Assembly: GCA_010015585.1 (NCBI GenBank)
Contig: ML975191.1
Direction: 5' to 3' (one strand)
Length of the DNA: 41,700 bases
Source: Eremomyces bilateralis CBS 781.70
Lineage: Eukaryota
Below, piece after piece: positions 7,338-40,424 of the stretch. Position 1 is the first letter of the stretch; every line of letters starts with the position of its first letter. The position numbers and the translations under genes were made by a program. The notes under the pieces were generated by a model. It saw only the letters and a program-made list of their open reading frames with translations. It made no database searches and was not told the origin of the DNA.

Positions 7338-7426
7338 TTGCCAGGGCTATGGGTACCTAAAACCCCGCCTCCTCCTTTGTGGTAGTAATTGTCCTTTCGT
7401 CGTTGCCTTCGTGGCTCTCCTTCTTA

Positions 7427-12968: not shown

Positions 12969-13070
12969 CCATAGCCGCTTGGTTGCTATAAGAAGGCAAA
13001 GCTGAACGCACTAGTAAGTTAACTGTTACTGGTGTAAAATAGCAGCACGGGTCAAATTAAGCAGAATTAT

Positions 13071-15396: not shown

Positions 15397-15538
15397 TGTG
15401 ATGGATCAGAGGTCTGTAGACCTGGATGCCTTGTGGCCTTGTGGCCCGTTTGCTCTGCACCATCAGGACATAATTCCTCGCACACTTTAGATAGATTCCG
15501 CCTTCATAGCAACAATTCAATGTTTGCCTCACGATTCG
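15397..15538 (+). mobile_element. Truncated LTR (family of 40253-40424)
   Basis: tgtgatggatcagagg...tgtttgcctcacgatt matches 40253 onward; cut off by the Copia LTR at 15539. Confidence 0.8.
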
Positions 15539-16852: not shown

Positions 16853-17056
16853 TGTCAGGGCACGAAGAATGAGGCAAAACTCTGTGATTCGTGATATACT
16901 AGAATCAATCTACAAAGGAGCAAGAAGGATCTAAAATACAATCCGCTGTGTGAGGGAGTGATAAGTAGGCCTTGGGGGTGAACATAACACATCGTAAGGC
17001 CACAAGGCACCCACACCCCCAGGCATCAAACTGAATTCAGTCTTCGTTCCTTCACA
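16853..17056 (-). mobile_element. Solo LTR (204 bp) with 5-bp TSD TGGAG
   Basis: TG..CA ends; tggag at 16848-16852 and 17057-17061; inverted relative of 24878-25077 (strand is relative to that copy). Confidence 0.9.
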
Positions 17057-18387: not shown

Positions 18388-21300
18388 TGTCGGAACTCCG
18401 CGGCTATTACTTAGTCACCGCACCTTGTAGATTACATAAGATTACATAAGCCCTGGGTATATATACCCGTCAAGGTAAACTATGTACTTCTGACCGAATA
18501 CAAGCATCTCACTGCCTCTGAACAGGTATCCTATTGTTTCCGTGATTGATTGACACGCCAAAACGATCAACAGTTATGAGCCCAATTTGCCTTGAAGCTC
18601 GATCTCTATATCAGCTTTCCGATTGATCTCAATATAGACCGTTGCTCCGCCAAAGCATCGTCTTCCGCCCGCTTCCGCGTCCCTCGACGACATCCCGAGA
18701 GACTCCATTCCTACCTACGTCTAGGAACTGTCCTATTATAGCGACATTTTCACAATGTCTTCTTCTACCAATTCCAATCATACGGTCACTATCCAGAACC
18801 CGTTGAAGGATATCACCAACTGGATCGACTGGTACGAAGAGATCAAGAACTACGCCCAACGCATCAAAGTTTGGGACTACGTCAACCCAACCTTCGTCGA
18901 AAGCCCTGCCTCAGAAGGAAAGGAAGCAGTAAAGCAACCTATCCATAAGGATCCTGCTCTTCCTCCTAGTCCATCTGGAAATGAGACGAACCCTGACATA
19001 CAATGGCTCTGGAAAACCTTCGAATACGAGAAAAGAGCATACGATCTCCGTGAGGCTGAACTCAAGAATCTCGCCAACGCTATCACCGCTTCCGTCAGTG
19101 GTGGTATGACTCGGTATATCAAGGGCAAATACCTTGCCAAGGACATGTTGCAGTCACTCCACCGTTACGCGGCTCCACAGTCAACCAAATTGGCATCTTA
19201 CCTTGAAGAAGAGTTCAACCGTTTGAAGAAGGGAAAGAAGAACCGGAATCAGTCTAATCTAGACTATGCCAACGATTAGCTTAAGTTGCAAGAGAAGATT
19301 GAGTCTGTCCGAGATCTTATTGATCATCTTACTGACCGATATATCTGCCGAGCTTTTATAGCCGCCGCTAATTCCATTAATAAGGAATTTCGGACGCACG
19401 TCTATACCCGCATCGCTGGAGACACGCTTAGCCCTACCCTTGCCGACCTTCCTACACTCGTTGATTGGTTCCTCGGCTTTGAAATCTTCCACAACGACCA
19501 AGACTCTTCGCAGAAGTTCGCTAACGTAACCCTCGAAGTTGCTGAACACCAACATCAACCGCAAAGAGGACAACGTAATGCAAAGGTTCCGTACAAAGAC
19601 TGCATCTGTGGAGTGAAACATTGGTATGGGGAATGCCCTCACATCAATTCCTCCAGGCGATCCAAGGATCATCACGAGGACCCTGCTATTATCGAACGAT
19701 TTCAGAGGCTCCCTCCAGGACCGCTTGAGAAGATCTATAAGCAGCTCCAACGCGACAAGGTCACAGCACCGGCATGGCTCCCTCCTAATCCAAGTGCCCA
19801 ACTCATCGTTCCTCCGGCACCGCAGATTCCAAAGGAGGCGAATACCATCATTATCGCGTCAATCGATCACCAGTCTTATGCCACTAATCGGTTTATCTTC
19901 GACACTGGCGCGAACGTCCATGTCTGTCACGATATCCACCGCTTCCACGACTTCAAACCCAATGATACTGGAGCCATCCGTTTCGGCATGGCCCTCCATC
20001 AGTATCACGGTACTGGATCAGTCAACGTCACTCTTAAGGATTTTCGTGGAAACACCCGAACTATGGAGCTACAGGGGGTCATCTACCTCCCTGGTTTCCA
20101 TGTTAATATCGCAGGCGGACAACTCTTCGATCAGGTCGACATATACTACTTTGGTAAAGATCACTCCTTACGTCACAGAAATGGTGATCACTACATTGCG
20201 AGACTCTTTAAGGAGAATCACCTTCTCTTTCTCGAACCTCCAGACAGTATCGTTCCACAACCTGCTGTTTATACTGCCAACGCAGCATCGTCCTACGACA
20301 TCTCTATGACCACTGCTCCGCTAGAGCAATGGCATCGACGCCTTGGTCACGCTCGTCCGGACGCTATACGCCACATGCCTGACGCTGTACAAGGTATCAG
20401 AATTATCACCCACTCCTCGCCAGACAAGGACAACTCCTTGTGCGATACCTGCAACCTAGCTCAAGTCCCAAAGCGGATCTCGCGCGTACCACAACCACGT
20501 GGTAACGCCCCCTTTGAGAAGGTTTGCCTTGACCTAGTCTTCATGGAAAATGCCTTCAACGATGACAGGTATATCCTCCACTTCTATGATCCATACTCTA
20601 CGTTCCATAGGGCTTTCCCTATCCGCGACAAGAAACAACAGACACAAATGGCCTGCATTAAGGAATTCTTCTGCTGGATCTACAACTGGGGATTTCGAGT
20701 CCTTACTCTCCAGCTCGATAATGAGACAGCCCTCAGCGATGAGTTTGACAAGTTCTGCCGCGACGCTGGAATCGAGGTCAATCACTCCGCTCCAGGTACA
20801 CACGACCAGAACGGCTTTATAGAACGTTCTGGGGGGGTGATGGTAACTATGGCTTGCAAAATCTGCATCGAGTCTAAACTTCCGAAGTCTCTCTGGCCTG
20901 AATTTGTCGCGCATGCCGAGTACCTGCTTAATCGGACTCCATTCAAGCACCCTACTCTTAACAAGTTCATTACACCCTTTGAGATTATCGCGAAGAGGAA
21001 GCCAAACCTCTCCCATCTCCAGATCATTAGATCTAAGGCTTTCGTACGCAAAGAGAACGCAAAGAAGGATAAGATGGAAGAACGCGCTCATATAGGTTTT
21101 CTGACTGGCTACTCTGCCTCAAACATCTATCGTGTCTGGGTTCCTTCGCTAAATCGTATCCTCGATAGCCGAGACGTCCGGATCGATGAGTCCATTCAGT
21201 ACGACCCAGTCCTCCACGCTACCCTATCTCCTCCTTCAGACCAGGATATCCAACAGCTTGAGGTTATAGTTCCTCGCTTCAACACGGAACTTCCTCCTAT

Positions 21301-23770
21301 TCCAGATAATGATTCCCTTAACCCTGCGCACAACGGCATCCAGCCCAAAGACCTTGACAGCCTATTGTCTCTACTTCCACAGACAAGCGCTAAGGTCCAA
21401 CAGCTCCTATCCAGCCCTCCAGGTCATCTTGCTACGCCTGATGCAACACCTGAACCGGACTCTCAGCAATCGTCCAGTCATCAGGCACTTCAGCCTCTTG
21501 ACAACAATCCTTAGGGAGGAATCCAGAGTGATTCCGCTTCCCCTACCAATACAGGTTTCGAAGACGCCTCACCAGATCTTCAGCTTATCGAGGAAACGCT
21601 CCAGTCCTACCGGGTCTCCTCTCCAACACCACAGGATATACCCGAAACTGGTTCCTCTACTCCAACTCCATCAGTCCCTCCTGAGCCTACCACGCGCCAG
21701 ACGCGCTCTACTACTGCTCAAAAGGAAACTAGCGCACTAAGAAACCTACGCTCTACAAGGTCTGGCAGGAAAATCACACTTTCCTCCAAGGCAAGAGACG
21801 TCCAAAGAAACAGTGCCATCCAATCCCAAGATGAACTTATCGAAAACGCAATCCATGCTTTCTCCGTCGCTGTCGCCAAAGCTGTCCTAGTTTCTGACAT
21901 GCCTCGTGAACCACAACACTGGTCTGATATGAAACACCACTTCTACAGCACTGAATGGTTCCGGGCAGCCAAGATTGAGATCGCAAAGCTTATCGAAATG
22001 GGAACACTTGTCGAGGTTGATATACCTACAGGCCAACAGGTCCTCCCTGTTCGCTGGGTCTTCAAATACAAGCAGGATCAGAACGGATACTTCACCAAGT
22101 TCAAAGCTCGCCTCTGCATTCGCGGAGACCTCCAATTTATCCAGAATCGAGACGACCTTTACGCTGCCGCTGGTGCGTACTCCACCTTCCGCGTCCTAAT
22201 GGCCCTTATGGCTGCCTTCGACCTTGAATGCGTTGCCGCTGATGTTACTAATGCATTCGCCAATGCGGTTCAAGATACCGAGGTCTATATCCGCTGCCCC
22301 GAAGGCTTTGGTCAGAAAGGACGCTGCTTCCTCGTCAAGAAAGCCCTCTACGGACTCCGCAAGTCCCCAAAGCTATGGTTCGAAACTATCTCTGAGTTCC
22401 TCTCCACCCTCGGTCTTACAGCAATCACCGAGGACCCCTGCGTATTTATGTCCCCATCACTTATCGTCTTTGTCTACGTTGACGATATTATCGTACTCGG
22501 CTCGAAGTCGAATCGTCCACTAATCGATGAGTTCTTTCGTAAACTCCTCGCACGGTTCGAGTCCCGGATACTCGGTGATATCGAGGTCTTCCTCGGCATT
22601 CGTATCGTCCGCGATCGTGCACAACGGAAGGTCTGGCTCTGTCAAGACGCCTACGTAGATAAGTTGGTCAACAAGTTCCATCGGGAAGAGGCAGCACCGG
22701 TCAATTCACCCCTTTCCCAAGACTTCTCCGATCAACGGTATGAGGGAACCGCATCCGTTCGCTCTATCCAAGGTTACCAGCAGAAGGTCGGATCCCTTGT
22801 ATATGCCGCAGTGACCACACGCCCTGATATCGCCCTTGCGGTATCCAGGCTTTCCCGTCACAACATCAATCCGTCTCCAAGGCATATAGAAGAGGCTGAT
22901 CGCTGCATCGCCTACCTAAAGACGACGAAATTCCACGCACTTGAATACTCCGGGTCTTCACAACCTCCTCCAGATGCCAGCTCACTTCCCGTCCAGGCTG
23001 CTTCTGACGCATCCTTCGCTGATGATCCAGAGACTCGCAAGTCCTCTAACGGATACATCATTTACCTGTTCAACGGCCCCGTTCGTTGGCAATCCGCCCG
23101 TCAGACAGTGGTAACGACCTCTACAACCGAAGCTGAGCTCCTTGCCCTCTCCTGGGCAGCACGCGAAGTAATCGCGATGAACCGTCTCTTCCGTCAACTC
23201 AGATTTGATCCAGAGCAAGAACTCACGATCCAATGTGATAATAAGCAGACAGTTGGTATTGTCTCTAAGCCAACCCCTTTGCTCACTTCACGCCTCCGTC
23301 ACGTTAATATCCATCAGTTCTGGCTACGCCAAGAGGTTCAGACTGGTGACCTCAACGTTGAATGGGTCTCCACATCTGAGATGGTCGCCGACGGTCTTAC
23401 CAAGATACTCTCCCCTCAGAACCACCGGAAATTCCTCGAGCACCTGAATATGCGATCTATCCAGCATCTCATTACAATCCCACGAGATATGATCACATCC
23501 GTCACTAAACGAACGTAACTGATTCAGAAGGATAACTCCGCGATACGGTTGTGATATACAGATCTTTTCTAGATCTGGGGGGGTGTGTCGGAACTCCGCG
23601 GCTATTACTTAGTCACCGCACCTTGTAGATTACATAAGATTACATAAGCCCTGGGTATATATACCCGTCAAGGTAAACTATGTACTTCTGACCGAATACA
23701 AGCATCTCACTGCCTCTGAACAGGTATCCTATTGTTTCCGTGATTGATTGACACGCCAAAACGATCAACA
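18388..23770 (+). mobile_element. Full-length Ty1/Copia retrotransposon; 185-bp LTRs identical by eye (18388-18572, 23586-23770); TSD GAGGA
   Basis: gagga at 18383-18387 and 23771-23775; PBS gttatgagccc; G-rich PPT before the 3' LTR. Confidence 0.97.
18755..23518 (+). pseudogene. Copia gag-pol polyprotein, one reading frame broken only by TAG at 19277 and 21512
   Basis: CICGVKHWYGEC; FIFDTGA protease; WHRRLGH; QNGFIER integrase; YVDD RT; SDASFAD RNase H; ORFs at 18755, 19286 and 21899 share one frame. Confidence 0.93.
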
Positions 23771-24073
23771 GAGGAGGACGTTGCTTTAAGGAACAACGGT
23801 CCGGAATGAGTTCAATGGGAAAGCTGATATAGAGATCGAGCTTTAAGGCAAATTGGGCTCATAACTGTTGAACGTTTTGGCGTGTCGTTAATCACGGAAG
23901 CAATAGGATACCTGTTCAGAGGCAATGCGATGCTTGTATTTCTGTAAGAAGTAGAATACAGAACGAGGTAGATATACCCATGACTAAGTAATAGCCGAAG
24001 AGGGGGAACGAATGACTAAGTAATAGCCGAAGCGGGGAAATGAATGACTAAGTAATGACATCAGATCTTGACA

Positions 24074-24199
24074 GATATTGATTGGGACTCTGCGCCATGA
24101 CTAAGCGCCCCACCCTTGCATCGTATCGTGAGGCACCAATATCAGGCTATAAGGCTACAATACTTCAACGCCTCAAAGTACGAAAGTACGACCGTGACA
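24074..24199 (+). mobile_element. Probable LTR fragment ending in tgaca
   Basis: LTR-like terminus and a catgactaagc motif; no second copy in the window. Confidence 0.4.
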
Positions 24200-24877
24200 A
24201 TATATCTCAAAGCGGGCGGGGTAAGGAGAAAAGATGATTCGATCCGGGCCCATCGGGCTCAAAAGGGTCATACAGAGGTAGGGGTGTTCCCGATACGATA
24301 TCGTCACGATCTTGCCATATCGGTTATCGTATCGGTGAGGAAGAATCCCGCCGATTTATATCGGCCAATCGTATCCGCAGAGATACGGCGAATGCGAATA
24401 AATATCGGCAAGATCGTCGCCGATACGACTATCGTCTCCGATATTGGCGCTAAATCATGAGTTCGTCCTAATTTGGTATTCTCTCCTGTATATCTTCTCG
24501 CAGCGACGGTAATAATGTCTATTACGCGCAATATTATAGATTCTACATATATTTTACATTGAATGATAACTTTCTAGACTTCTTTTGGCAGCATAACCAT
24601 CATGGCTTTGAATGAGAATAGAGCAATGGTTACCCGCCATAACCAACAGAATTACCTCTTACTTAATGATGGATACGATGAAACTTTACCAGAAGATCAA
24701 ATAACGGAATCCGATTTTGAATCTTTTGTCAATCTATCATCAACTGAAGTCCTGCCCTCAGAGTCAGTTTTACAGGCCCTGACTTATTCCGCACTAACAG
24801 TATCATCCTCGATCCTGCCCCGGAAACGCCCAGCGCCTACTACAGCGTAGATGTAGGATTATTTCTAAACGACTGAA

Positions 24878-25077
24878 TGTGAAGGATCGAAGATTGAATT
24901 CAGTCTGATGCCTTGGGGCCTTGGGATGTGGATGCCTTACGGCCTCACGATGTGTTGTGGTCACCCCAAGGCCTACTGAATATTTCCCCTCACACTTAGA
25001 TCTCCCTTTCCCCTTGGTAGATTGATTCTAGTATATCACGAATCACAGAGTTTTGCCTCATTCTTCGTGCCCTGACA
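24878..25077 (+). mobile_element. Solo LTR (200 bp) with TSD CTGAA
   Basis: ctgaa at 24873-24877 and 25078-25082; related to 16853-17056. Confidence 0.9.
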
Positions 25078-26563
25078 CTGAAGTAGCTCGCGAATAGGTT
25101 ATAAAGCGGTCAGGAAAGCGGTAAACTACAGATATAGAGATTCGATGTGCTTTTATTAATAAGAAGACTAGTATCCAATATCCTTGGACGACCTTAGATT
25201 TATTACGGCAGACATTTACTTCGAATATGCAGTAGTATCTTAAAAAGTACTCTATCTATTCCCCTCATTCTTAAGATAAGCCCCTTCTAAAGAAGCAGGC
25301 AAGCGTTATTAGCCTTCTTACTCGGAAAGAGACCTTATTATACTAACAACTTCTTGAGCGGAATATTCTTTAATGGGTTATCTATGATAAACAAGCTTTT
25401 ACTACCATCGAATCGCCAGCTTTCTAGCAAATCTTTCGAGATATTCTAGGTATCTTACTCCCGTTCTCTTCACGGTCTACCCTACGACGGCGGCTTATAG
25501 AAAGCTTTAATATGCAGCGTCTTTAATTAAAGGAGGAGCTTTCCGTAACCTGCATAACTATTGCCTTGTCTCTTGACATCTGGACGAGCAAAAACCACCT
25601 TCCTATTCTCGGTATAATCGGCCACTGGCTTACGGAGACGTTCGAATATCAGGAACGGACCTTAGAATTCTGTGAACTCCGTAGAGTACATAGTAGGGAA
25701 AATCTTGCGGCAGCTATTAATGCTACTCTCGTAGAGTTGGATCTAACATTAAAGTTGATTATAATTACTGGAGACAATGCCCGTAATAATGAAGTTATGG
25801 CCTTAGAATTGTTCTATACCTTGAACGAAAAATATGGCGCAGAGACGCTCCTAAACGGGCTTCTATTCCGCGGAGTGGACAGCTACATCCGCTGCCTGGC
25901 CCATATTTTGAACTTAATCGTTCAAGATATCCTTCGCGCCTTGAAATCAGGAAGCGTGGAAGCGGCATACACCATCTATGATAGCTTATACGCTGGGGGA
26001 TCTATATCGAGTCAGACAGCATTGTCTAAGCTCCGAATTCTCGCTCTCTAGATTAACCGGAGCCCATAGAGACGGCAGAAATAGAAAGAAGTCTGTTAAT
26101 TCATGAATCTCTTAGAAAAATTCATTGAATATGATGTAGAGACTCGTTAGAACTCTACCTATCGAATGTTAGATGACGGGTTAAAAGCAAAGGCTTAGAT
26201 CAATCGATACGTAGCCCTATAGACGGAGATACCTTCCTTTACCGCCGAGGAATGGCAGCACCTGTCTCAGATTCATCAAGTACTGAGCAAGTTCAACGAG
26301 CTCACCCTGTTCGTATCAGAGCGAAAGCCACAGATCAGCCTTACCGTCCCACTCTATTATGAGCTATATGATTTACTCAATGAGGGGTCTGAAGCTCAGG
26401 GAGTCTTTTCGGGATTAAATCGTGATATTACCCAAGCAATCAAGGAAGGAATAAAGAAATACGAGAAATACTACACCTTTATAGATGAATTAGATACCTA
26501 CTACACTACTCTAATTCTAGATCCTCGGGTGAAAGGAGACCTAATCCTTAATAAATTAGAGGA

Positions 26564-29500
26564 AAATTTTTTTGTTAAAGCAAGGAACATTTTTCTGCAA
26601 AACAGCCCACAACTTGGAAATTAGCTGAGATTATGATCGTAATCGATTCTTCACACTTCATTCAATTATAATCAACTATTGCAGCCCTCCCAAATAATGG
26701 TTAGAGGGCGCATGAGGGGGAAAGGCCCGCAGGCCAAAGACGCGTCCCCGACGCGTCCCCAGCAGGCGGACCACCCACGACCCAACACCCGCAACGGAGT
26801 AGGAGAACAAAATGGACGGATAGATGAGGGGCGGATACTCCAAATTATGGAAAACTATATAAAACTCGCGTTAGAGAGCTGCCGTGGATAGGCTAGGGCG
26901 GGGTCGCTCCGTAGAGTTCTTAAGGCTTACCTAACGCCCGTTCTCCGGCTTATTCCGGAGCTAGCATAGAGAAAGAGTATAGAAAAGGCGTAGGCGGGAA
27001 CACCCGCCAGGGACCCAGCGATGGGTCAAATATTAGAGCGTCTTAGACGTATTAAAGCTAGAATCGCGAAAGACCGCGGTCGCCTAGCCGCGGCCCTAAC
27101 CACCGAGATACGAACCTAGAGTAAGATCGCCGTAGGGGGAAAGACTAAGGCGGTCGTTGAAGTGCGCCTCTCTAAAATAGCAGGAGCCGTAGAAGAGACG
27201 ACGGAAGAGAAACTATAGAGAATCAAGAAGGTAATCCTAGACGCGAAAGCGATTATCCCCCACTACCGGGCAGCCGGTAAGGTGTCGGTCGTGGTTCCTA
27301 CCACTACCCGACGGGACTAGATTATCGCTACTAGAATCGCTGGGGATAACGGCATTAAACTGATCCGTCGCCCGAAGCTACTTATAGTAATAGGTATCCT
27401 AATTTATATATAGATTATAACCGGTAAAAGTAAGGGGAACACCGAATGGGCGAGATAGATGTCGAACTAAAACGCTGTTAAAATTGAACGAATCTCCTGG
27501 CTCTATAAGAAAGAGAAGCTAGCGGCTATCCGGAATGCTGGGTCACAGACGAAGGGATCAATTATTATCGAGGTGGCTACCGAAACTGACGTGATACGTC
27601 TTATTAAGGACGGCTTCCTATATAGCGCCCTATGGCTCCCAGCTAAACTATGGGACGTTACTCTCCGGGCGATCTAGTATATCCGCTGTTAGAAATAGGG
27701 CCACACGTAGTCCGTTTATAACGCGGATAGCGACACCTGTGGGCGCTGCGCAAAACACTACCCTATAAGGGGATATATAATACAAGACCTTCAAGAGGCA
27801 AGGTGCGCAGGGTGTAAGAAACCTAGGCACTTTGCCTAGATAACCAGAAGCTGCGCGGTATATAAATCCTTCGTAGCTGGCCAGCGAGCTACAGAAAACC
27901 GCCTTAATGAAGCTACCCTCGCCGTCTACCGGGGGCAAAACCAAAACCAAAACCAAAACCAAAACCAAAATGTCACAACCTACCAGTTCCGCCACGATGA
28001 CGATGGATATATTATTATTAGCAACACCTAGAAGCGGAGGATGGCGGGACCTGGGAGGCCCTTAGGAATCACGGTAGCAGCCCGAGCCCCAGGGCAGCAG
28101 CGACTCTAGCTCTCGGCTAGTTAACTAGAAGACTTTATATCCGGCATTAGTACTTCTACCTTTACGATACCTACCGGAAAGGATATAACCGGAGAGGACA
28201 CGACATCTACCGGAAAGGATATAACCGGAGAGGATACGACACTTACCGGAAAGGACAATACCCCTAGTACTCAATGATAGGGACCGGCATCCTCTAATAT
28301 AACTACGGTAATGCGAACAACGATAAGGCTAGGGCTACCTTCGACTCGATTAACCCTACCCGGTTCCCTATACTTGCAATTCAGGAACCGATGGTCGCCG
28401 AAACCAAACCAACAGTCACCTATACACCAAAGAATTTTCGCCCAAGCCGACCTATATACTACGGTATACGGGTCGTCTTCTTTATCCACGATAAGATCCT
28501 TCTTACAGCTTGGGAATCAAAGCGAGCCTCCGACCACATCGAATGGATCCGCGTTATAACGCGTGACGGACCCCTCAACCTCGTTAACGTATATAATCCA
28601 CCAGGGCACGTAGGCCAGCCACAGCTTAAGAAGTGGCCGGAGATCGCAGAAATTCTCTGCGAAATTGGCCAAGAGAACGTTATCCTCCTAGGGGACTTTA
28701 ACTACCATCACCCAGCCTGGGGTAGAACCGGAACCCTAAAGGAGCTAAAGGTAGACTACCTACTCCTCTAAACCGAGCAAGCTAACCTCTAGCTCCTTAA
28801 CGAGTAAGGGGTAATAATATAGAAGCGGAACTAAAGCTAGTCGGTCATTAACCTAGCCTTTGCCTCGCCGGAGATCGCCTTACGGATCCTCCTCTACTAC
28901 CTACGGCCGGAGTAGTCTACTATAAAGGACTACTTTCTAATCGAGATCTAAACTAGATGCTAAGGTTTCCTTATACTAGACGAGCCTAAGGTTTATACTC
29001 AAGGATGCCCCGTGGGAAAAAATCCGGGAAGATGTCTCTAGCTCCTAGTGGTATGTACTAGAACCCTATACTGCGATTAATAACCTTATTAGACTTCTTT
29101 ACGGCACCTTAGATAAGCACTATAAACGGGCGCGACCTTGTGACTAGTCTAGACCGGAGTAGTCACTATAGGCAGCAGAGTTCCTAGCTGGCGCCCGCTA
29201 GGCCCGACGCCGGCTCTAACGGACCTAGGACCCGGACGACGAACGAGACTAGAAATACTAAAGGAATGCCCTAAGGAGGAAGATGCGTAGTAACGGCCGG
29301 ACGAGATAGAGAAAACTTATCTAGACACTTACTAAAGACGAGAATTACCCGGACTATATATATAACCGAGGGCTCTAGAGACTAAATAAGTAGAGCCAGA
29401 AGACCGCTAGGTAACCCGGTAGGCTTATAGCTATCCTACTACTTAGGCGCACGGAGAACGATCCCCCGACGGGAGATAACTAAGGGAAAGTAGAGATCCT

Positions 29501-31850
29501 TGCTACAAAGTTCTTCCCACGGAGCGGTGCCGCTGACCTCTAAGATATAACTAACGAATAGTTCCCACGATTCGATATCGGGCAAGAGGTTACCCTAGAT
29601 AAGATTACCCGGATTATCCGCCGGCTACCGAACTAGAAGGCCCCCGGGCCTAATATGATCCCGAACGAGGTACTAAAGGCCCTCTCTAATATCCTAGCCG
29701 TAGACCTAGCCCGGACGGTTACCGCTCTCTTCCGAAGCGGGGAGCTACTAGCAGTTCTAAAGGAATCTACTACGGTGGTACTAAGGAAGGACAAGAAAAA
29801 GGACTACTCTCTTCTAAGCAGCTACCGCCCTATTACTCTTAAAAACACGGTTACAAAGCTAATCGAGAAAATCCTCGCAGATCGACTGATCACTAAAGCG
29901 GAAATACGAGATCTGATTCCCTAGAACCAAATAGGAGCTCGAAAGGAGAGATCTACTCTCTCCGCCCTAGAACTCCTTACCGGGACTATATAGACGGCGT
30001 AGCACGTAAAGAAGTCTGTAGTCTCTATACTTAGGCTTGACCTTGCTGGAGCTTTTGATAACGTCTCTTACCCCCGGCTGCTCTAGGTCCTTCGTCGGAT
30101 AGGATATCCCGAATAGATTATCTAGATAATCGTATCTTTCTTAACCGGACGGCGAACAAAGATTCTCTTCTCGGACTTTAAGAGCCGCTAGTTCGACACG
30201 GAGACAGGGATCCCGTAAGGCTCTACCCTATCACCCGCGCTGTTTATCCTATTCATATCTGACCTACTGTATCAGTTTAAGGATATTTAGGGTAACGTGC
30301 TCGGGTTCGGGTTCGTTAATAATACTACACTGGTTACCTAGGGAGATACGGTAGTAGCTAACTGCCAACGACTAACTGCGGCCTACGATACTTACCTAGA
30401 ATAGGCGTCACGGTTCGGGGCTAAATTTACCCCGGATAAGTACCAGATTATCTACTTTACCAAGAAACGTAATATTTCCGCTAATCTCCGGTCTACGATC
30501 TAAATATAGGGACATTAAGCTAAATTAGTTATATCCCTCCGGGTACTAGGAGTTTAGCTCGACCCTTCCCTCTTATAGAAGGACTATATCCTCCGGGTAA
30601 TATAGAGGGGACTTAAGGCCTTCGACTCCCTAGCGAGGGTAACTTCATCGGTATAGGGACTATCCGTCCGGAAATCGAGGCTGCTCTACATAGCGGTTGC
30701 ACGGCCTATTATGACATACGGCGCCCCTATTTGGGGAGTCTATTAGCAGGGTAAGCCAATCTCTGAAGGCAAAATGAAGGACCTAGCCAAGGTTCAGAAC
30801 AAGTGTCTACGAAAGATCCTAGGGGCTTACAAACGGACACCAATCGCCGCGCTTAAGAGAGAGGCGGACGTTCCCCCAATCGAACTCTACGTCTAAGAAC
30901 GGGCCGCCCAAAGAGTAGCATCGACGAACACCTACAAGATCACTACCCAGATTAAGGGAGCCCTAACGTAAGTCTAGGATACTACTTCTGCTCCCCCGAG
31001 ACGAACTCGAGGCCGACCCCGCCGTATCCGGTCTAAACCTGAACCCGCGATAAGTACGCTTCGGACCTAGTATAATAGACTTCTATTCCCCCGGCCCGAA
31101 CTAATTAGAGGATATTAGATATAATAGCGAAAAGGCCCGTACCGGATAATCTAGGACGAGTATCGAGCGAAATAGAGGGAGAGATAGTAAGCCGAAGCGG
31201 CTAGACTAGGAAGGAGAGTAAGGATATAGAAGGACCCGTAGGAAACCTAGTGCCTTAACCGGTACGACGGCCTTTAGAAATACGAGGCCTCGGCGCTTAT
31301 AGTACTACGGACTAAGGTAGTTAGAGTTAAAGGATGGCTCGCAAAAATTAGTATCCCTAGAATCCACCTAGCGTATGAGTACGGTGCCCCCCGATAGTCT
31401 CTCTACTATCTCCTTGTATTTTGCCCGCAGCGGACCGACCAGAGGATCGAGCTCCTCTAACGAGCTGGAACAACGGACTTTAAGAGGATATTGCATAATA
31501 GGGACAAGGTACGCCACGTAGCAAGGTGGCTAATCGATACGGGAGGCCTAGAGTAATACCGGGTAGCTAAGGAAGTTAAGGAGGAGGTAATAGAGGACTA
31601 GAAACCGTTCCAGTTCCTCCACGACGTGCCAGAATAAGCTCTCCGCGTAGGCGGAAACACCGACTCTTACGGATAGATAATAAACGTTTCAGATAGTCTA
31701 CTAAAGGGAGGAGGCGGGATTTTATGTACCCGCAGCCTCAGGGCTACGGGGAAACTTTTGCCCGCGGCAGACCAGATAGAATATCGTGCTCGTAGACCCG
31801 AAAGGGATCCAGATAGTACGTTAAATTGATTCTTATTATTATTATTATTA
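26564..31850 (+). mobile_element. Full-length, heavily RIP-mutated Tad1-like LINE (ORF1 with CCHC knuckles; ORF2 APE endonuclease-RT-Zn finger)
   Basis: NVYNPP and LLGDFNYHHPAW endonuclease motifs; RT region as in 232-2990; (TTA)n tail; TSD (tta)ataaattagagga at 26548-26563 and 31848-31863. Confidence 0.95.
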
Positions 31851-32661: not shown

Positions 32662-32842
32662 TGTTACACATACAAATAAATTGCGCCTTACCAAAGGTGC
32701 AATTAACCATAGTACAGTAGGTAGACCGTTTATACACAGATGTAAATAGTAGATCGTAGTACGAGAGATCTTTTTCTTTTCTCTTCAGCAATTCATCAGC
32801 GTTACCAGCTTACCAAGTCCTTCGTGGTTTGGGTCTATGATA
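32662..32842 (+). mobile_element. Probable solo LTR; about 120 bp is inverted-homologous to 38659-38783
   Basis: tgttac...tgata (RIP form of tgaca); shares ggtagaccgttt...gtggtttggg with the 38659 copy; no TSD. Confidence 0.65.
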
Positions 32843-32955
32843 TATTTTACTCTGTAGCTTGATTTGCTGCTGAAATTTGGACGAAATAGCTGGAAATGTA
32901 AAATTTAGAAGACCCTTCGATTGGAACACCAAACACCATACTCCGCTATATATAC

Positions 32956-35027
32956 TCATCCTGTTGAGGCACTGTTCAGGCCGTCCTGTATCCTTCGTCT
33001 TTTCGATGCTCCCTGCCCGTTTCTACCATCCAGTCCTGAATCATCTTCAAAATCTTCAAAATCTCGCCTGGTTTTCCCACGACGCTGTTCATCAATTTCA
33101 AGACATCTCCGTACACCACTCAAAGCGCTACCAACAGCACTTTGATCAGAATATACCGGATCAGAATCCCCTTCCCAAACTAGACCCTCAAGAAGTTCGT
33201 TCTCCCTCATTACACCTAACTTTTTACCATCAAAGCCGTGAGCGATCTGCCAATTATCGAGTAACGCGCCGAACGAGCCTATCTCCTTTCCAAGGCCGAC
33301 CTCCATCTGGGACCAACAGTTTCCTTTCTCGCAGTAAAAGACACTCTCTCCCTCTTTTAAATCAGAAGAAACGAGTATCTCCCCTTTGCGCCGCCGCTCT
33401 TCTTTTCTTTGAGCATTAGCTAAGGCCACTTTGGCTCTGACTTGCAATTTTCCAAGCTCTTTTTTTCGCGAATCTTTGGTCCAGGAGGGGAGTGGCAAAT
33501 CCACATCGTGGCTCAAGACTCGCTCCCACTTTCTACCAATGTTATACATTGAGCTCCAGTCCAAAAGAAAATTCTCTTCGCAGAACTTTTGCCATGACTT
33601 CAGATGGCCAAGCACGAAGGCCCTGTGCTCTGATATAGCCCAATTGTGTATTTGGTCTACTATCGATAGTAGCTCCCAGGCTTTCATTTCCGTAACGATA
33701 CGGCCGCTCCATATTCGCTGGAAGACCTGGAGTTTAAGGGTTAGTTTCTGATTCCAATATGATACAGAACATGAGGGACGTACATAGACCGTATCGCTCA
33801 TATCTTCCCTGCCAGCGAACTCGTTGGGTTCTTGATACCACCAGTCAGTTCCACAAGTAGTAGAGTTGTCTACTCGTGGTCGCCGGTATCCGACTAATAC
33901 ATGCCAATGAGCACCAAATGAAGTCAAAGCGAACACTTGGTACTTGTGGCTAGTAGAGGTTTGGTACACCCTTTTCTCGTAGTTCTCCTTTGGGCCAGGG
34001 GTACGCGCTAGGTTGTCCAGTAGATCGAGATACGTGGCTGCGGCCAGACAAGCCTGTCGGCGCGCGGTACGGCAATCTCCATCCCAGCCTTTGGCCTCGT
34101 AGACTGCAAAAGGAAATGCCAGCTGAGTTCGGCCCCAATGTGGATCGGCCAATAGTCCACACTTTGGGTGCAATAACACCCTCTCTAACGTGTCTTGGTG
34201 TAGCTGCTCAACGAATGCTGGAGATTGATGATCTGAGAATGTGGCCAGACCAAATGTTATATCTGGTATCCGGTGGATTATCTTCGATTCGCCGGTTAAG
34301 GTGCACCGAATAGCATCGGTTTTCTTTTTGAAAGTGTGATACCCATGCTTGTCCCTAGAAGAAACTGTTAGCGCTATTTTTGCAGTAAAGAGGGCAGAAT
34401 TACATCGTCAGATATGGATCATCCCTAATCTGACCGAATACATCAGACCAAGCATCTGCATCCCATGGGTATTCACTCTTTTTCCACAACTCATTGTTTC
34501 TATTATGCTCTGCAAATCTCCTCGCACGTCGCCTGCGATCGGCCTCCCGAGGGTCGTTCCAATTAAGGTCTTCTAGAGTAGGTATCCATATACTGCGACT
34601 AGATTTTACAAACATTGGTTTATAAAACTGGTGATAGTATATTCCTCGTGCATTTAGCGCAAAATCTTTTCTAACGAGATCGAGTAACCCTGGTGGGTAT
34701 TGTATCGTCGGATCGAGGAAGCTACGGGAGTTAGCGGTTTAAATCAATATTAGCGGGTTTATCTTACCGGCCAGTATTGTGGTAGAGTTCTTCAACTCTG
34801 TCCGCTTTCTCTTTATCAGTTCCCTTCATAGTCGCCATATTGACAGTACTAGGACGGATAACCACGTCTGTAACCTTGCACCCAAGGCCATCAAGAGTTC
34901 CATTTCGTTTAGCCTGAATTATTTTCTTTTTCACATCTTGCATGTACTGCCTGTGAAATACTTTGTACTCTTTCTTGGTCATATTTTTAGGAAGTTGTGA
35001 AGAAAGGTCCTCCAAATGAGGTTCCAT
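32956..35027 (-). CDS. Putative PD-(D/E)XK nuclease-like protein, about 639 aa, 4 exons (35027-34768, 34721-34404, 34354-33784, 33726-32956)
   Basis: Three GT-AG introns with ctaac branch sites give an open frame; HRIPDITFGL...FPFAVYEAK followed by ARRQAC; function inferred from motif only. Confidence 0.7.
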
Positions 35028-35480
35028 TTTCTTTGCCGAAACTCGTTATTTGGGAAGCAGAATTATAGAGACGATAGATAAATCCCGAGCTTTTGTTACT
35101 TGTATTACTGACATATTTATACACGGACGTGTGGCAAATCCGAACCTAGACGCTACAGCAAGCGCCCTAAGAAAGCTACGTGGGGAGTCTGGGAGAGACG
35201 TTTCTGCCTAGCGCCACATTACGTCAGTGGTTTTCTTAGACATGGATGGGTAGAGAGTTAGGCAGTAGCTAGAGGGCTAATACGTAGTAAACCTGGCTGA
35301 ATGTCAGGGTACGTAGACGAGCGTACAGCTCACCTGATGTTGGGTAAACCTCGGCAGACATAGGGAATTTTAAGGAACTCCCCTTAAAGCTCACCTTAGA
35401 AATATAAAGCTTAGATCACCTTTTCGACTCTACTGCCAACTTCTGTTTGTTGTTTTTCGACATCGGCAACTTGCTACCGC

Positions 35481-38400
35481 ATGGGTAACATGTTCCATAC
35501 ACGTTCAGAACGTATTCGCATACTAATACATTATAGACGGCTCGGAATCTGGTACGATGTCGACTCCAGACCCTGGAGTCGACGATGAACAGATCCTCGA
35601 CCTGCTAAACGACGAAATACGCATAGCCAATACAGCGGAAGACCAAGGAGACAATGTAATTCGAAACACGTTTAGATCATGTTCCTGTATGCTTATGAAC
35701 ATGTTAGGATGTCCCTCAAGCCCTGACTATGCTGGCGAGGAATTCAAGGCCACCACTTACTACGCTTTTCTTAGAGTATACTACAGTACTTCCAGACTAT
35801 CCTCAAACACATCCAGATGGCTATACATACTGTATAAATCTCCAAGGGGAAGAGCAGGCAGGGAAATGGACAGTAAGCTTAACGAATTCCTAATAGTTAT
35901 ATACTATTAAATACTAAATGTACTTTATAAATAGATTCAATACGGCCATAGGATTCGGTATCCTGCTAACCGGACAAGGATTCCCTTTCTTGGAAATACG
36001 TTCGGGATGAAGAGTCACCTCCAGTGTACTGGTGTAAAGGTTTGCGAATACGTTTCGAACACGTTACGGAACCTACACCATACAACCACGTCTGAAGAGC
36101 TTTGGGAGCAGATTCGAGGATCGCGTACGGGAATTGACCTCACAGAGCCAGACCTAAGGAAAAGATACTCGAATACGTTAGGAACAACCTCTTAACATGT
36201 TCTGAACCTAATACTAACTTGATTAAGTCTCTATCTTGCCGCGCAGAAGAAATTCAATGCGAAGACAGCTTGTACAAATCAAGGCGATAGCTGCAAGCTT
36301 TTATTTCAGCTTAGCCATTACCTGGTATCTTAATATCCTATAATATATCTATGTATCTTAAAAAGACTAATTCATTTAGGATGTTGCTGGTATCTACAAT
36401 CCATATTTTAGATGCTCGAACTCGACTCCAGAAACGCGTTCTAAACACTTTTTTAAAGCGATCGCAACCGACGGGCGTTATAATATTGATCATCTCTGTG
36501 AGTTAGTTAACGAGGGACAGGCGCAAGATCATCCGTCAGAAGAATGCGGTGTCATTGAAGGAAACCAAACCCGGAGACCTACATGCAGTAAGACCCTATT
36601 TCGAACGTGTTTATAATACGTTTCTAACGCGTTCTATAGATGTAGATCACTACCAGGGGCAAGGTAGGCTCGAATCGATAGGCTGCAACGTCAGATTTGT
36701 TGTCTTTATGCCTGAGGACCTTGTAGCAGTACCATATATGCTTTTTACATCTTATGGTACTCATACTCATCCACCACCGCCACCGTCAAAAGCCCCAACC
36801 AAGCTGTGTGACGAGGTTATTAGACTGATCAAACGGACAAGGGACGCGAAGTTAACTCTTGGTAAACGTATTCCTAACACGTTCTGAACATGGTCTAATA
36901 CCGTATAGCGAAATTTATGCAAAGTGAGGCGCTCCGAGACTTCTGCCTACAGTATAATAAGGCTTCTTTAGCAGAAGTCCATCAGAGCTTTGGTAATATG
37001 GACCGGATTTCAGCCCTGATTCGTAAGGAGAGACTACTTCTAAATCCTCACGGAACCCATTTCCAAGGTGTAGTGTTTGAGAAGGGAATACATCATTCGA
37101 TATTCGATTCCAGAAACTGTATGTAATATACTTATAACATGTTCGGAACCGGCTACTAACGTAATAGGCATACATCCAAGAGATTTTTGACGACGGCAAC
37201 GATATCATGATTATTTGTTTCTTCCAGCAGCAGGTCAAGCTTCTATTTCAACAAGATTCCTTCGAAGTTGATATGTCTTTCAAACGGATTCGACAAAAGG
37301 ACATCAATGAGATCATTTTCGCAAATCTCATCCCATCACACGGAAAAAGTATGTCTTATTACGTTCCTAACGTATTCCGAACACGTTCCTAATACTATTA
37401 GTCATTACTTGGGGTCGCATCCTAACGAATATGGATTCCGTCCAAGGCTATCAGTTGGCCTTTGAGCGATTCTTCAGTACCGCTTCGAAAGTAGCGGAAA
37501 CGCCTGTGAAATGGAAGCACGTCCATGAAACCGCCGTAAATTCCTTTTCTGCGGTAGTAATGGATATGTGTCCAAAACAGATGAAAGGTATGGAATTCAA
37601 TTCTATATCCTATAAACTTAATCCTAACGCGTTCGGAAAGGGTTCGGAAGGTATCTTAAAACCGTTGACCCCCAGCGCCGCTCTTGGGACTGGCACGCGC
37701 GCCGGACGGTCATATTTTGCCGTGTCCACTTCTTTCGCAGTATTGAGAAGCTTATCCGGGAAGACGAGGCAGGCTTAACGCTCCGTAGCCGCCTGCGGTC
37801 TTTACTTACGTGTAAGACACGGGATGAGTATTATCAGCTCTGCGATTTGATTACAGGTACGTTCCGAATAAACTGTAAACGAGTTTCGAACAGGTTCTAA
37901 ACGTATTAGAGCACGAACGTGTTGAGATCCAGCAATGGGTACGTCATAAACGACACCCGGTTATCGCAGCAGGTCTAAACAGAGCTTGTTCCGATATGGA
38001 TCCGAACGTGTTCGACAGTGTCCTAAAGCATACAAATGCCGTTGAGCAAGCCGCAAACAAATCATACGCGCCAGGCAAGCGACAAGACCTGCTTATCGCT
38101 ATTAAACAGTAAGAATACGCGACCGGAACATGTTCTATACTTACTATAAATGCGTTTAGTGCCCAGACTAGGGATAAGCGAGATCTCGACCAGTATCGTA
38201 TACGGGAAGACCATAATATGACCCACGTCCAACGGAATACAACGCTTCAAGCCCGATATGAGGAGCAAATGCGCAAAGACAGTGAGTTACATAGTAGTGG
38301 CTCTGTACCAAACAGGTTCTAAACATATTCAGAGCGTATTCAACTCAAAAGACGTAGAGTTGAACCGTCATTGGACCATAACGACGATGAGATCCTTACA

Positions 38401-38691
38401 CTTGCGTCGTCGTCTGGTTACGTACGGACTCCAAGTCGACGAGGATCAAGATCTCCGGCTTTAAGAGCTAGGAGGTCTGAGTCGGTCGGAACTAGCAATA
38501 GGCCAATAAGGTATTTATAACGTACTTTAAACATGTTTCGATTATATTAACCTTCTAGTGAAAACTCTCTACCGCGCCTCCAGCGCGTAGCCGTAGAAAG
38601 GGAGCAAGACTTAGCTACGCGTAGACAAGAACTAGAGCTCCGCCAATTGGCCGCTCAGTGTCAAGGGCCCAAACCACAAAGGATTTGGTAA
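35481..38691 (+). pseudogene. Mutator(MULE)-like DDE transposase gene, 15 exons and 14 introns of 47-62 nt, about 824 aa; one 7-bp frameshift; C-terminus runs into an LTR
   Basis: Introns 35485-35536, 35656-35707, 35873-35934, 36177-36227, 36325-36379, 36588-36639, 36862-36908, 37119-37167, 37349-37401, 37588-37640, 37857-37909, 38109-38159, 38282-38332, 38511-38558; motifs C..GTHTHPPP, FEVDMSFKR, VVMDMC, FCRVHFFR, HTNAVEQ. Confidence 0.75.
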
Positions 38692-38846
38692 GCTGGTAAC
38701 GCTGTTGAATTGCTAAAGAGAGAAGGAGAAGATCTCTCTCACTGCGATCTGCTATTTACATCTGTGGACAAACGGTCTACCCATCCCTTCTGCCTTAGGC
38801 CGCAAGGCCACAACACACAGACTGGGCAAAGCCCAAGACTGTCACA
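38659..38846 (-). mobile_element. Probable solo LTR (188 bp) overlapping the end of the transposase frame
   Basis: Reads tgtgac...ccttgaca on the minus strand; TATA-like tgtaaata; no TSD (ctcag/aatgg). Confidence 0.7.
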
Positions 38847-39124
38847 AATGGAGACGATTCGGAACATAGCCTGCTAGAGTTCGCCGCGGACCGATCCCTC
38901 AATAGCGGAATTAGGCATAATACAGATAGAGGAGTCGTCGACCTCCTCTTCGACTGGAAAAGGAATATGGCAGAAATCTGCGGGCCTCGCGCCGCCATCA
39001 GACCGGTGGGCGAGAATATCGGAGCAAATGTGCATGGCCGGGCTTGGGGAAACAGAAGAGAGGGATTTCTCAGAGTTAACCACTGCACCAAATGGACCAC
39101 CTTATGGTACGCCCCCGCGCCATA

Positions 39125-39276: not shown

Positions 39277-40223
39277 CTAAGCCCACATCTTCATCGGCTT
39301 CACGTTGCCCGCCGTATCCGACGACGCAAACTGCCACCACCCGGGATGCCTCAGCATAAACACATTCGCCAACCCCATCTTCACTAGACCGGGAATTGGT
39401 GGCCAATTCATCCACAAACCGTCCTCAAACTCTCGATCCATATGCAGCAGCAAAAACACAAATACATCCGTGTACCCCGCATTCGTTATACTCGTCCTCC
39501 CCCAGTCCTCGAACGCCTTCGCCGCCTTTTCCGTCGGCTCCGGCCCGGCCGCCAGCGCTGCGATGGTCTTGATCTCCGAGTGAAAATGCGACTGAAACGG
39601 CTCAAGGAACGCGTCCATCTTGTCGCGGAGAGTCTGCGGCTTGAACGACGCCGGCTCCTGCGCGGAGGCGTGCAGGTAGTCGGACATCGTCTGGACGCCG
39701 GAGACGAAGGCCTCGTGCTCGCCAAGGGTGTCGTCGAAATAGCCGGGCTTCTTCATTTCGGCCTCGACGTGCGGGAAGAGGTCGCGTTCCTCGGCCTCGG
39801 CGTGCGAGATGACGAGCTTCGTCCACGCGCTGGCGTAGCCGATGAAGTTGGCGTGCTGGGCGGCGGGCACGGAAAGGGCTTGGTTGTAGATGCTATTAAA
39901 GCCGCGGAAGACGGCATTGTGCATCAAGGCCATATGGGAGGCGCCGGTAGTGAAGGTGTTGTTCTGGGAAAAGTTAGCGGCTTGCTTCACGCTCGCCAGG
40001 GGGGTAATCAGGTTGAATAAGCGGGTGAAGATAAATGGCGTACCTTTTTGGTCTCATATATGGGTGTATGCACAAGTGGGACCGGGCCCTCGACCCACGA
40101 CTTGTCGACGGTACTAGACATGGCTCTCTTATCCGTTTGCAGGTAGTAGTTGAAGGAGCCTCCGAGAATAAGCGCAGCGGTTATAGGAACACCAAAGGCG
40201 AGGATCGAGCGTAACCTAGGCAT
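39277..40223 (-). CDS. Hemerythrin/HHE cation-binding domain protein; intron 39964-40043; start 40223 (288 aa) or 40121 (254 aa)
   Basis: MALMHNAVFRGFNSIY; HAEAEERDLFP; EHEAF; HFHSEI; gtacgc..gctaac..cag intron. Confidence 0.85.
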
Positions 40224-40252
40224 GTATATGCGCACACTCCACCAAATGTACC

Positions 40253-40424
40253 TGTGATGGATCAGAGGTCCGCAGACCTGGATGCCTTGTGGCCCTGTGG
40301 CCCGTTTGCTCTGTAAACACCAGAACAGATAAACGCCTCGCACACCTTAGATAGATTCCTCCTTCATAGCAACAATTCAATGTTTGCCTCACGATTGGAG
40401 ATTCCCGACAGTGAGACTCTTACA
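40253..40424 (+). mobile_element. Solo LTR (172 bp), no TSD
   Basis: tgtgatgg...cttaca; flanks gtacc/gatcg; related copies at 15397 and 32567. Confidence 0.85.

Follow-up and report, generated by a model that had tools for sequence, protein, structure and literature searches.

Phased palindrome arrays in the introns of a Mutator-like transposon family: candidate DNA sites for an element-specific protein

Introduction

Contig ML975191.1 of the fungus Eremomyces bilateralis CBS 781.70 carries a Mutator-like transposase gene, here termed gene A, in which most introns contain an 8-bp palindrome, AACRYGTT, or near variants of it in 11-nt phase. The window is the whole stretch of 41,700 nt that was analysed; gene A occupies 35481..38691 on its plus strand and has 15 exons and 14 introns of 47-62 nt. 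The palindrome arrays were pointed out in an earlier note on this DNA. We confirm that observation, find it stronger than first stated and extend it to the whole transposon family. The results point to a conserved but undescribed recognition code in this family. We see an even chance that the arrays serve a dimeric, element-specific protein as sites on DNA and are housed in old introns.

Palindrome arrays in the introns of gene A

The window contains 16 copies of AACRYGTT, and all 16 are located within 35487-38537. Twelve are in 729 nt of intron, four in 2482 nt of exon and none in the remaining 38,489 nt. From base composition 2.7 copies are expected in the whole window and 0.2 in the 3074-nt region. 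Fisher tests yield p = 1.3e-5 for exon versus outside and likewise 1.3e-5 for intron versus exon. As background for the motif we used the window outside gene A together with sequence flanking the related loci. The strict word is present in 10 of the 14 introns and the looser AAYRYRTT in 12; introns 3 and 5 have neither. This bears out the earlier note, which had assigned AACRYGTT or near variants to 12 introns and had singled out introns 3 and 5 as lacking them. The exonic copies it listed at 36047-36065, 36433, 37916 and 38005 are all present.

The phasing is equally distinct. At a lag of 11 nt the base identity within the 14 introns is 243/575 = 0.423, compared with 0.279 +/- 0.018 (maximum 0.329) in 2000 dinucleotide-preserving shuffles (z 7.9). 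At lag 22 it is 0.392 (z 5.3), and the exons are flat at 0.23-0.27. The tandem spacing of 11 nt claimed earlier is thus a genuine autocorrelation peak. Several introns of gene A are approximately a 5' splice site plus three or four 11-nt units. Tandem Repeats Finder (TRF) reports just two period-11 arrays at a score of at least 30 because the units are too diverged.

Introns of another gene of the window look different. The neighbouring gene at 32814-34800 on the minus strand is expressed and has three ordinary introns (33727-33783, 34355-34403, 34722-34767). In these three RNA-supported introns CTAAC branch sites are present and no palindrome was found, in line with the earlier statement that introns of other genes in the window largely lack it.

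The splice model was to be checked against RNA. The GT..AG joints of introns 2-12 are exact in one spliced contig of run X3, and the joint of intron 9 is also present in a contig of run X4; both runs are typed as RNA by guess only, and their spliced contigs were used for joints alone. Introns 1, 13 and 14 are not among the joints listed and are based on frame continuity and on matching introns in a relative, locus L007. Intron 8 had to be corrected to 37119-37167 (49 nt). A 98-nt intron 8, from a hand model that kept the frame, is ruled out by the spliced contig. The coding sequence opens with a piece of only 4 nt, ATGG, directly followed by intron 1; this is so in the window (35481-35484), in L007 (148-151) and also in locus L002.

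The introns and the exonic copies of the palindrome are the following:

35485..35536 (+): intron 1, 52 nt, after ATGG; AACATGTT, TACACGTT and AACGTATT in 11-nt phase; GT..AG, frame, same place in L007 and L002
35656..35707 (+): intron 2, 52 nt; AACACGTT, AACATGTT; joint 35655>35708
35873..35934 (+): intron 3, 62 nt; neither the strict nor the loose word, identity of 0.41 at lag 11, possibly eroded units; joint 35872>35935
36047..36065 (+): exonic array of two units, AATACGTT-tcg-AACACGTT, in the region coding for a Cys/His finger; the homologous codons of locus L055 read AACGAGTT-aca-AACGTGTT
36177..36227 (+): intron 4, 51 nt; AACATGTT; joint 36176>36228
36325..36379 (+): intron 5, 55 nt; AT-rich, without motif, lag-11 identity 0.25; joint 36323>36379, cut +1
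36433..36440 (+): exonic AACGCGTT; motif scan
36588..36639 (+): intron 6, 52 nt; AACGTGTT-tat-AATACGTT-tct-AACGCGTT; joint 36587>36640; TRF period 11, 3.2 copies at 36599-36633
36862..36908 (+): intron 7, 47 nt, equal to GTA plus four 11-nt units by sequence; joint 36860>36908, cut +1
37119..37167 (+): intron 8, 49 nt; AACATGTT; joint 37118>37168
37349..37401 (+): intron 9, 53 nt; four units including AACGTATT and AACACGTT; joint 37348>37402 in X3 and X4
37588..37640 (+): intron 10, 53 nt; AACGCGTT adjoining the 3' splice site; joint 37582>37636, cut +5
37857..37909 (+): intron 11, 53 nt; AACGAGTT-tcg-AACAGGTT-cta-AACGTATT; joint 37854>37908, cut +2
37916..37923 (+): exonic AACGTGTT; motif scan
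38005..38012 (+): exonic AACGTGTT (GAACGTGTTC, codons P-N-V-F); motif scan
38109..38159 (+): intron 12, 51 nt; AACATGTT; joint 38108>38160
38282..38332 (+): intron 13, 51 nt; AACAGGTT-cta-AACATATT; GT..AG, frame
38511..38558 (+): intron 14, 48 nt; AACATGTT; GT..AG, frame; the annotated protein P0001 reads into it

Run X4 is labelled as organism B. It contains a 251-nt contig for 37204-37507 which is identical to the spliced exons 9-10 of gene A. A difference in labelling, a mixed culture or carry-over could explain this.

The arrays in related elements

A phmmer search with the annotated tail of the protein retrieved 375 proteins at E<=0.001; the best full-length matches are 38% identical. Named homologues are scattered over the Pezizomycotina (Coccidioides, Plenodomus, Polytolypa, Microsporum, Hypoxylon). 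Many matches are fragments of single open reading frames which end at exon borders of gene A (residues 1-47, 109-180, 181-246), and their read-through tails translate the motif, e.g., RTRSEQV, NAF and NMSRIRSEY. A scan of metagenome contigs yielded 60 related loci with DNA. Strict AACRYGTT occurs in 5-23 copies in 10 of them (expected <0.6) and in 0-2 copies in the other 50. L055 is the cleanest relative, with introns like GTAAG..(AACGTGTTCTA)x3..G and two further units just upstream of the ATG.

Three loci, L007, L008 and L002, each hold a complete element of about 5.1-5.2 kb with terminal inverted repeats (TIRs) of 56 nt at its ends; L007 and L008 are two assemblies of one insertion. The TIRs of L007 are 93% complementary and 5079 nt apart, and they recur in L002 and L008. 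Each of the three elements has an intact gene A (14 introns, 868 aa) and a convergent gene B (3984-5048 on the minus strand of L007) which encodes about 274 aa and has introns with the same palindrome units. The gene B product combines a single C2H2-like finger, whose coding sequence is interrupted by an intron, with a central Pro/Ser-rich part and an acidic tail rich in Cys. Across clades complete elements measure 5-6 kb (5.1-6.0 kb in the other clades), share the TIR tip GCTCGGCTGACC and have CGACCAT repeats in the TIR.

The palindromes stay inside these elements. L007 has 23 strict copies at 165-5090 between tips at 10-5192, and none in 2 kb of flank; L002 has 21 copies between its tips, L033 43 at 2259-7228 (tips 2082-7374) and L022 37. 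No palindrome was found outside the TIR tips of complete elements, e.g., L033, L007, L002 and L022. Each complete element has 21-31 arrays between its TIRs with a median gap of about 160-220 nt. They occupy nearly every non-coding gap, i.e., the introns of both genes, the leaders and the intergenic spacer, and they are spread across the whole element of about 5 kb instead of being clustered at promoters.

The ends are different. Within the outermost 100-180 nt on either side of L007, L002, L033, L040, L022 and L006 the palindrome of the respective clade is absent, and CGACCAT-type repeats are found instead. The recurrence of the motif at the termini of intact elements, which the earlier note had proposed to look for, is therefore not observed. 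Binding of the transposase to the palindrome at the ends was rejected as a candidate; the TIRs carry a family-wide CGACCAT-type motif and never the palindrome.

Clade-specific palindromes with a common spacing

Loci without AACRYGTT have other recurrent palindromes, as an unbiased 8-mer count per locus demonstrates: AATRYATT, TGATYAAT, AAGTACTT and ACCATGGT.

AATRYATT (and sub-words): L006 and L009-L011, about 22 copies
ATTRATCA / TGATYAAT: 21 loci, up to 33 copies
ACCATGGT, inside the 10-bp palindrome AACCATGGTT: L022, up to 49 copies
AAGTACTT: L028 and L029, 20-23 copies

Further recurrent words, which were checked less closely, are ATCGAT-type (L015), TAGATATA-type (L048-L060) and AACTAATT (L030). 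By eye, the copies of the other clades also sit in short GT..AG segments between coding pieces. In four of five clades the spacing is exactly 11, 22 or 33 nt:

AAYRYRTT: 48 pairs at 11 nt, 22 at 22 nt, 11 at 33 nt, none at 10 or 12 nt
AATRYATT: 70 at 11 nt, 36 at 22 nt, 3 at 33 nt, none at 10 or 12 nt
TGATYAAT: 73 at 11 nt, 35 at 22 nt, 16 at 33 nt, none at 10 or 12 nt
AAGTACTT: 6 at 11 nt, 3 at 22 nt, 4 at 33 nt, none at 10 or 12 nt

The TGATYAAT clade also has counts at 7, 9, 13, 20, 24 and 31 nt; we interpret these as a second register.

The word follows the transposase tree. It changes 11 times on the tree; shuffled labels need 22.5 changes on average, and none of 200 shuffles reached so low a number. 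The tree was built from four concatenated exons (45 rows, 38 of them different); its deeper nodes are open and several branches are long. The TGATYAAT clade has a support of 100/100.

The introns themselves are older. In clades with different words tblastn pieces end at the same residues of P0001, 47/48, 109/110, 180/181 and 246/247; thus, the introns are orthologous and predate the words. The question raised earlier about homologues can be answered accordingly: motif architecture and intron positions are conserved in the relatives, as is the phasing in four of five clades, and the word itself differs by clade.

Three further observations concern individual words and loci. AATRYATT and AACRYGTT differ by a symmetric transition pair, C3>T and G6>A, as would be expected from a dimeric reader whose preference for its half-site has changed. 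Both words are present in L053 (9 and 10 copies). In L043-L045 the 8-mer lists contain no recurrent palindrome, only a (CA)n run; this clade may lack arrays or use a word that was not looked for.

Selection and decay

A logo of 135 sites from 10 loci has a fixed AAC-RY-GTT core and a 3-nt spacer without information. The neighbouring units are visible at +/-11, with AA at -11/-10 and +11/+12 and TT at -5/-4 and +17/+18.

Sequence change is slower in the motif columns than in the spacers next to them. L007 and L002 are 88% identical overall; identical are 230/256 motif columns and 139/171 spacer/flank columns (p 0.014), and in the reverse comparison 218/240 and 135/165 (p 0.010). Neither the motif nor the spacer/flank columns contain gaps, as against 41-172 gap columns elsewhere in the alignment. 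Among 14 loci of the TGATYAAT clade nucleotide diversity is 0.23-0.27 at motif columns, on a par with the mostly coding remainder (0.26) and lower than in the spacers (0.34-0.37); for motif versus spacer p is 3e-5 and 7e-7 with the two references tested. The motif columns were fixed on a single reference and then applied to the other sequences for scoring. The test is conservative because transposon copies partly decay neutrally. Selection on spacing in non-coding DNA of eukaryotes seldom leaves so clean a signature as this strict phasing of 11 bp combined with freely mutating spacers.

The earlier note had explained many variants as decay of AACGCGTT by CpG deamination or repeat-induced point mutation (RIP). 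In part this stands. The centres of the 135 sites (AT 62, GT 32, AC 27, GC 14, in the order AT > GT ~ AC > GC) are consistent with symmetric transitions; this spectrum and the window variants AACGTATT and AATACGTT fit erosion by C>T and G>A, which has partly affected the window arrays. An ancestral AACGCGTT is not demonstrated, however; L055, the cleanest relative, is dominated by AACGTGTT.

An identity of the unit with the intron branch site was also considered and rejected. The spacer positions which would complete CTAAC have no information in the logo, and the introns of the neighbouring gene have CTAAC without the palindrome.

Class of the transposon and candidate DNA-binding parts

Pfam does not recognise this family. 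There was no match, including MULE (PF10551), for 11 exon translations, for five proteins (E<=0.1) and for 25 relatives (E<=0.01). A sequence profile search against the Protein Data Bank (PDB) returned just two rows of portal proteins at chance level. The AlphaFold model of the homologue P0005 has a mean predicted local distance difference test score of 66.5, with 84-94 in the catalytic core. In a Foldseek search of the PDB with the whole model, all four matches at E<=0.001 are chains of the ISCth4 transposase; Hermes (hAT) is next at 2.6e-3. We take the ISCth4 transposase to be a member of the IS256 family, the bacterial kin of Mutator. Source databases name 'MULE transposase domain-containing protein', and Atlas neighbours carry PF10551. 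The Mutator-like identity proposed earlier is therefore probable: fold, source names and Atlas neighbours point to it, and Pfam gives it no support (0/30 proteins).

The MuDR element of maize has long TIRs and two convergent genes. The present element resembles MuDR and the Mutator/IS256 group in its long TIRs (56 nt in L007) and its two convergent genes. A probable further resemblance is the fold match of the putative DDE transposase to ISCth4, together with the GCM/FAR1/FLYWCH-like neighbours of its N-terminal part. The element differs in the unmatched Pfam MULE domain, in the fourteen introns of gene A and in the lack of a 9-bp duplication at one insertion. Concerning the latter, a target-site duplication of about 9 bp was looked for at one insertion of about ten complete elements, where the 9 nt on the left from L008 and on the right from L007 differ, a weak negative. 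To our knowledge palindrome arrays housed in introns have no counterpart in MuDR or Mutator/IS256.

Two parts of the element might bind DNA. Homologues of the transposase have conserved C..C...H.H and C...C...H.HPPPPP patterns, and the Atlas neighbours of residues 60-420 are GCM (12% of members), FLYWCH, FAR1 and ZSWIM3_N, at scores of 0.78-0.92, which are at the level of leads. The second zinc-finger region of the transposase is one candidate for reading the arrays; the other would be gene B with its small C2H2-like product.

What the arrays may do

If the arrays are DNA sites for an element-specific protein, the 11-bp phasing would put the palindromes on one face of the helix. The palindrome would co-evolve with the element, so that each transposase clade would come to have its own word, and the protein that binds the arrays would probably be encoded by the element itself. 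Introns would let a compact 5-kb element carry 21-31 arrays, about one per 160-220 bp. A likely use would be self-recognition in cis, e.g., the marking of full-length copies for assembly of a transposition complex, for regulation or for immunity. The TIR word is constant across clades while the internal word changes; hence, the function that binds the TIRs is probably not the one that reads the arrays. Palindromy, phasing by one turn and strand symmetry favour double-stranded DNA as the thing read. The earlier proposal of binding arrays stored in introns is supported indirectly: the arrays are palindromic, phased, confined to the transposon, specific for the clade and slower to change than their spacers. 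The TIR-reading domain is an unlikely binder, the TIRs being free of the palindrome.

Several points weigh against this reading. Protein binding, the identity of the binder and the effect of binding are inferred from sequence, and so far the readers are candidates. Every copy is in transcribed DNA, and location alone cannot separate a role of DNA from one of RNA. The final unit of many introns directly adjoins the 3' splice site, which could point to a role in splicing, and exact 11-nt units are also a product of replication slippage. The 10-bp palindrome of L022 has a looser spacing of 11-14 and 22-24 nt. The related loci include near-duplicates (L007/L008, L033/L034, L028/L029, L040/L042, L043-45), and their counts are not independent; intron models in the relatives come from a frame-keeping search and from reading by eye, without RNA support. 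Finally, gene B was detected only in L007/L008, in L002 and weakly in L053, and it is not yet a reader for all clades. A six-frame scan of the second-gene regions for C2H2 fingers found none; the finger spans an exon junction, so the scan is uninformative about gene B of other clades.

Among the alternatives, a role at the level of RNA is unlikely in our judgement. The palindromes of the pre-mRNA would form hairpins with an 8-bp stem and a 3-nt loop, or would bind an RNA regulator, and thereby make splicing efficient or conditional. Twelve of the 16 window copies are indeed intronic, the final unit frequently extends up to the 3' splice site (as AACATGTTTAG and AACGCGTTCTAG directly ahead of the cut), and an 8-nt stem plus a 3-nt loop makes 11, the minimal hairpin length. 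In L055 neighbouring units fold into such hairpins, with a mean z of -0.9 over 8 introns; the 14 introns of the window, however, fold like their shuffles (z -1.8 to +1.5). The strand test argues in the same direction. In RNA the wobble-tolerant AACGUGUU self-pairs via G-U and AACACGUU cannot, yet gene A has no bias on the sense strand (AACGTGTT 24 versus AACACGTT 19, p 0.54). Neighbouring units do not exceed random ones in pairability (10/15 and 31/56 versus 0.58 and 0.60 expected), with eight AC/AC pairs among them. Strand symmetry, pairability and folding together led us to reject the hairpin version. Copies in exons and ahead of the ATG, and host introns without the motif, also do not agree with a splicing device.

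That the arrays have no function at all is less probable still. They would then descend, introner-like, from one repeat-rich seed or be maintained by 11-nt slippage and concerted evolution within the element. The introns of one element are alike, L055 has perfect triplets of AACGTGTTCTA, an exact unit length is typical of slippage, and introner-like elements are known in Dothideomycetes (PMC4457414). This does not explain why motif columns are more conserved than the spacers of the same arrays, in which no column is gapped, or why the spacers vary in sequence and never in length. Intron positions are common to clades with different palindromes, which makes the introns older than the words. Neither the 38.5 kb of host DNA nor the flanks of complete elements contain the motif; it is enriched in exons, and the folding is not unusually stable. 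The serial gain of introns from one seed, offered in the earlier note, finds no support in view of the shared positions, of flanks and host introns without the motif and of the ordinary folding stability.

Least probable is a reading of the palindromes by transcription factors of the host, for which they would be intragenic enhancers. Their size would suit dimeric factors, and the arrays begin about 100-180 nt inside the TIRs, near presumed promoters. AACGCGTT contains ACGCGT, and ACGCGT/ACGT cores can presumably be read by cell-cycle, developmental or bZIP factors. The word, however, changes with the transposase clade at constant architecture, and the arrays extend over the whole 5 kb without clustering at promoters. 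Different words also occur under one sample prefix (L005 with AACRYGTT, L048-L060 with the TAGATATA-type), in contigs which cannot be assigned to one host.

Returning to DNA sites for an element-specific protein, we have considered two further steps. One is that the introns exist as an address code: every lineage would place its own palindrome, phased by one turn, in all non-coding gaps of the element, and a lineage-specific reader encoded by the element would recognise its whole body and not the ends alone. Mobilisation, regulation or protection would then be limited to full-length copies of one lineage, and deletion derivatives and foreign lineages would be shut out. We regard this as less likely than not. 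The bolder version is an idea only: AAC/GTT triplets in 11-bp phase might pair arrays duplex-to-duplex without strand opening, similar to the proposal for homology sensing in RIP, and so fold the element or align copies.

Comparison with known systems

Plant DNA transposons carry subterminal arrays of binding sites, i.e., the 12-bp TnpA sites of En/Spm and the AAACGG hexamers of Ac. By analogy the present arrays may be compared with these: many short element-specific words in both orientations, a proposed reader encoded by the element, and a need in cis. The sites of En/Spm and Ac, however, occupy a few hundred bp next to the ends, whereas here the ends carry CGACCAT and the arrays extend body-wide in 21-31 clusters which are mostly intronic and in exact 11-bp phase. 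Sites concentrated at the ends and related to the TIR word were not found in L007, L002, L033, L040, L022 or L006.

Introner-like elements have an unusually stable predicted RNA structure; the 14 window introns are centred near z 0. The likeness to those of Dothideomycetes (PMC4457414) lies in short spliceosomal introns of similar sequence. The present case differs in being one transposon family with old, conserved positions and host introns without the units. Copies in unrelated host genes were not observed, with 0 in the 38,489 nt outside gene A and none outside the tips of complete elements. Recent, non-shared gains were not seen either; positions are shared by clades whose proteins are 22-44% identical.

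The symmetrical stwintrons and sister introns of Hypoxylaceae (PMC8469720) are likewise fungal introns with internal symmetry and many copies. As described there, they have terminal inverted repeats of 45-55 nt, are nested and have moved into host genes at new positions. The present introns instead keep fixed positions inside a transposon and contain 8-bp palindromes in 11-nt phase.

In Neurospora, the homology sensing that precedes RIP recognises base triplets 11 or 12 bp apart between intact duplexes, independent of recombination (PMC4858203). AAC and GTT triplets recur every 11 bp in the present arrays, and the link is an idea only. That sensing compares repeats which are hundreds of bp long and ends in mutation, whereas these arrays are 22-44 bp and apparently kept by selection.

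The earlier note knew of no fungal transposon with this design. None was found in the literature, with subscription journals and Repbase outside the scope of the search, and none of the publications listed for E. bilateralis deals with these arrays by title or abstract. In agreement with these searches, we found no printed description of conserved phased palindrome arrays in transposon introns.

State of the window copy and other features

The copy in the window is a dead relic of a two-gene, TIR-bounded Mutator-like DNA transposon, the 3' end of which is cut by a repeat. Once the supported 49-nt intron 8 is spliced, the ATG frame stops near 37190; the window copy is therefore frameshifted. 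Intact relatives read through the corresponding point at 37074-37118; L007 reads FEKQMKHQNPEK and, across the border, AYIQ, and the protein P0002 also aligns here. The annotated E. bilateralis protein P0001 (350 aa) is the C-terminal part of gene A, and a 60-aa exon matches it at 100% identity. As a warning for annotation, this gene model is the tail of a frameshifted transposase relic.

35326..35385 (+): decayed left TIR of the element; aligns with the 56-nt TIRs of L007 and L002 (GCAGCTCGGCTGACCCTCGGGTAAAC versus ACAGCTCACCTGATGTTGGGTAAAC)
35481..38691 (+): gene A, frameshifted relic; spliced model, identity with P0001, phmmer homologues, fold match to the ISCth4 transposase
37074..37118 (+): frameshift zone at the end of exon 8; frame stop near 37190 after the supported intron 8, alignments of L007 and P0002
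38660..38691 (+): junction with the high-copy repeat; DNA contig end at 38692, five contigs with loose ends at 38659, depth 21,524 versus 179

An intact TIR tip was not found in the window at up to 2 mismatches, nor a counterpart of gene B and of the right TIR in their L007/L002 versions; Rfam had no match over 35000-39000. In DNA run X1 a single contig covers 32621-38692 at a flat depth of 179, with nothing else matching at >=80% likeness. This is a weak indication that gene A is single-copy; no second copy was seen. Directly 3' of gene A are high-copy repeats at 38660-39080 (depth 21,524) and 39739-40395 (depth 6,880), the first of which truncates the relic.

Further away, a single contig in X1 and another in X3 pass over a segment of 5.3 kb at 26549-31850 (joint 26549>31850). 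The segment has a depth of 6,000-26,000, far above the roughly 180-700 nearby, which marks it as a high-copy insertion. Differences from other copies are mostly A>G and T>C as read, i.e., the window copy has extra C>T and G>A changes; these look like RIP or deamination. The segment at 9001-10000 has a GC content of 0.395, a GC skew of -0.38 and an AT skew of -0.37, well off the neighbouring 1-kb bins.

Implications

The motif is a cheap marker for an element family that Pfam does not recognise. At least five clades have the same architecture and intron positions combined with different palindromes, a natural experiment for swaps and for studies of co-variation. If the arrays are sites for an element-specific protein, this would be a transposon with cis-recognition over its whole body, stored in introns instead of at the ends. 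It would then join two questions, how a transposon tells self from non-self, e.g., from parasitic deletion derivatives, and why some genes keep many short introns.

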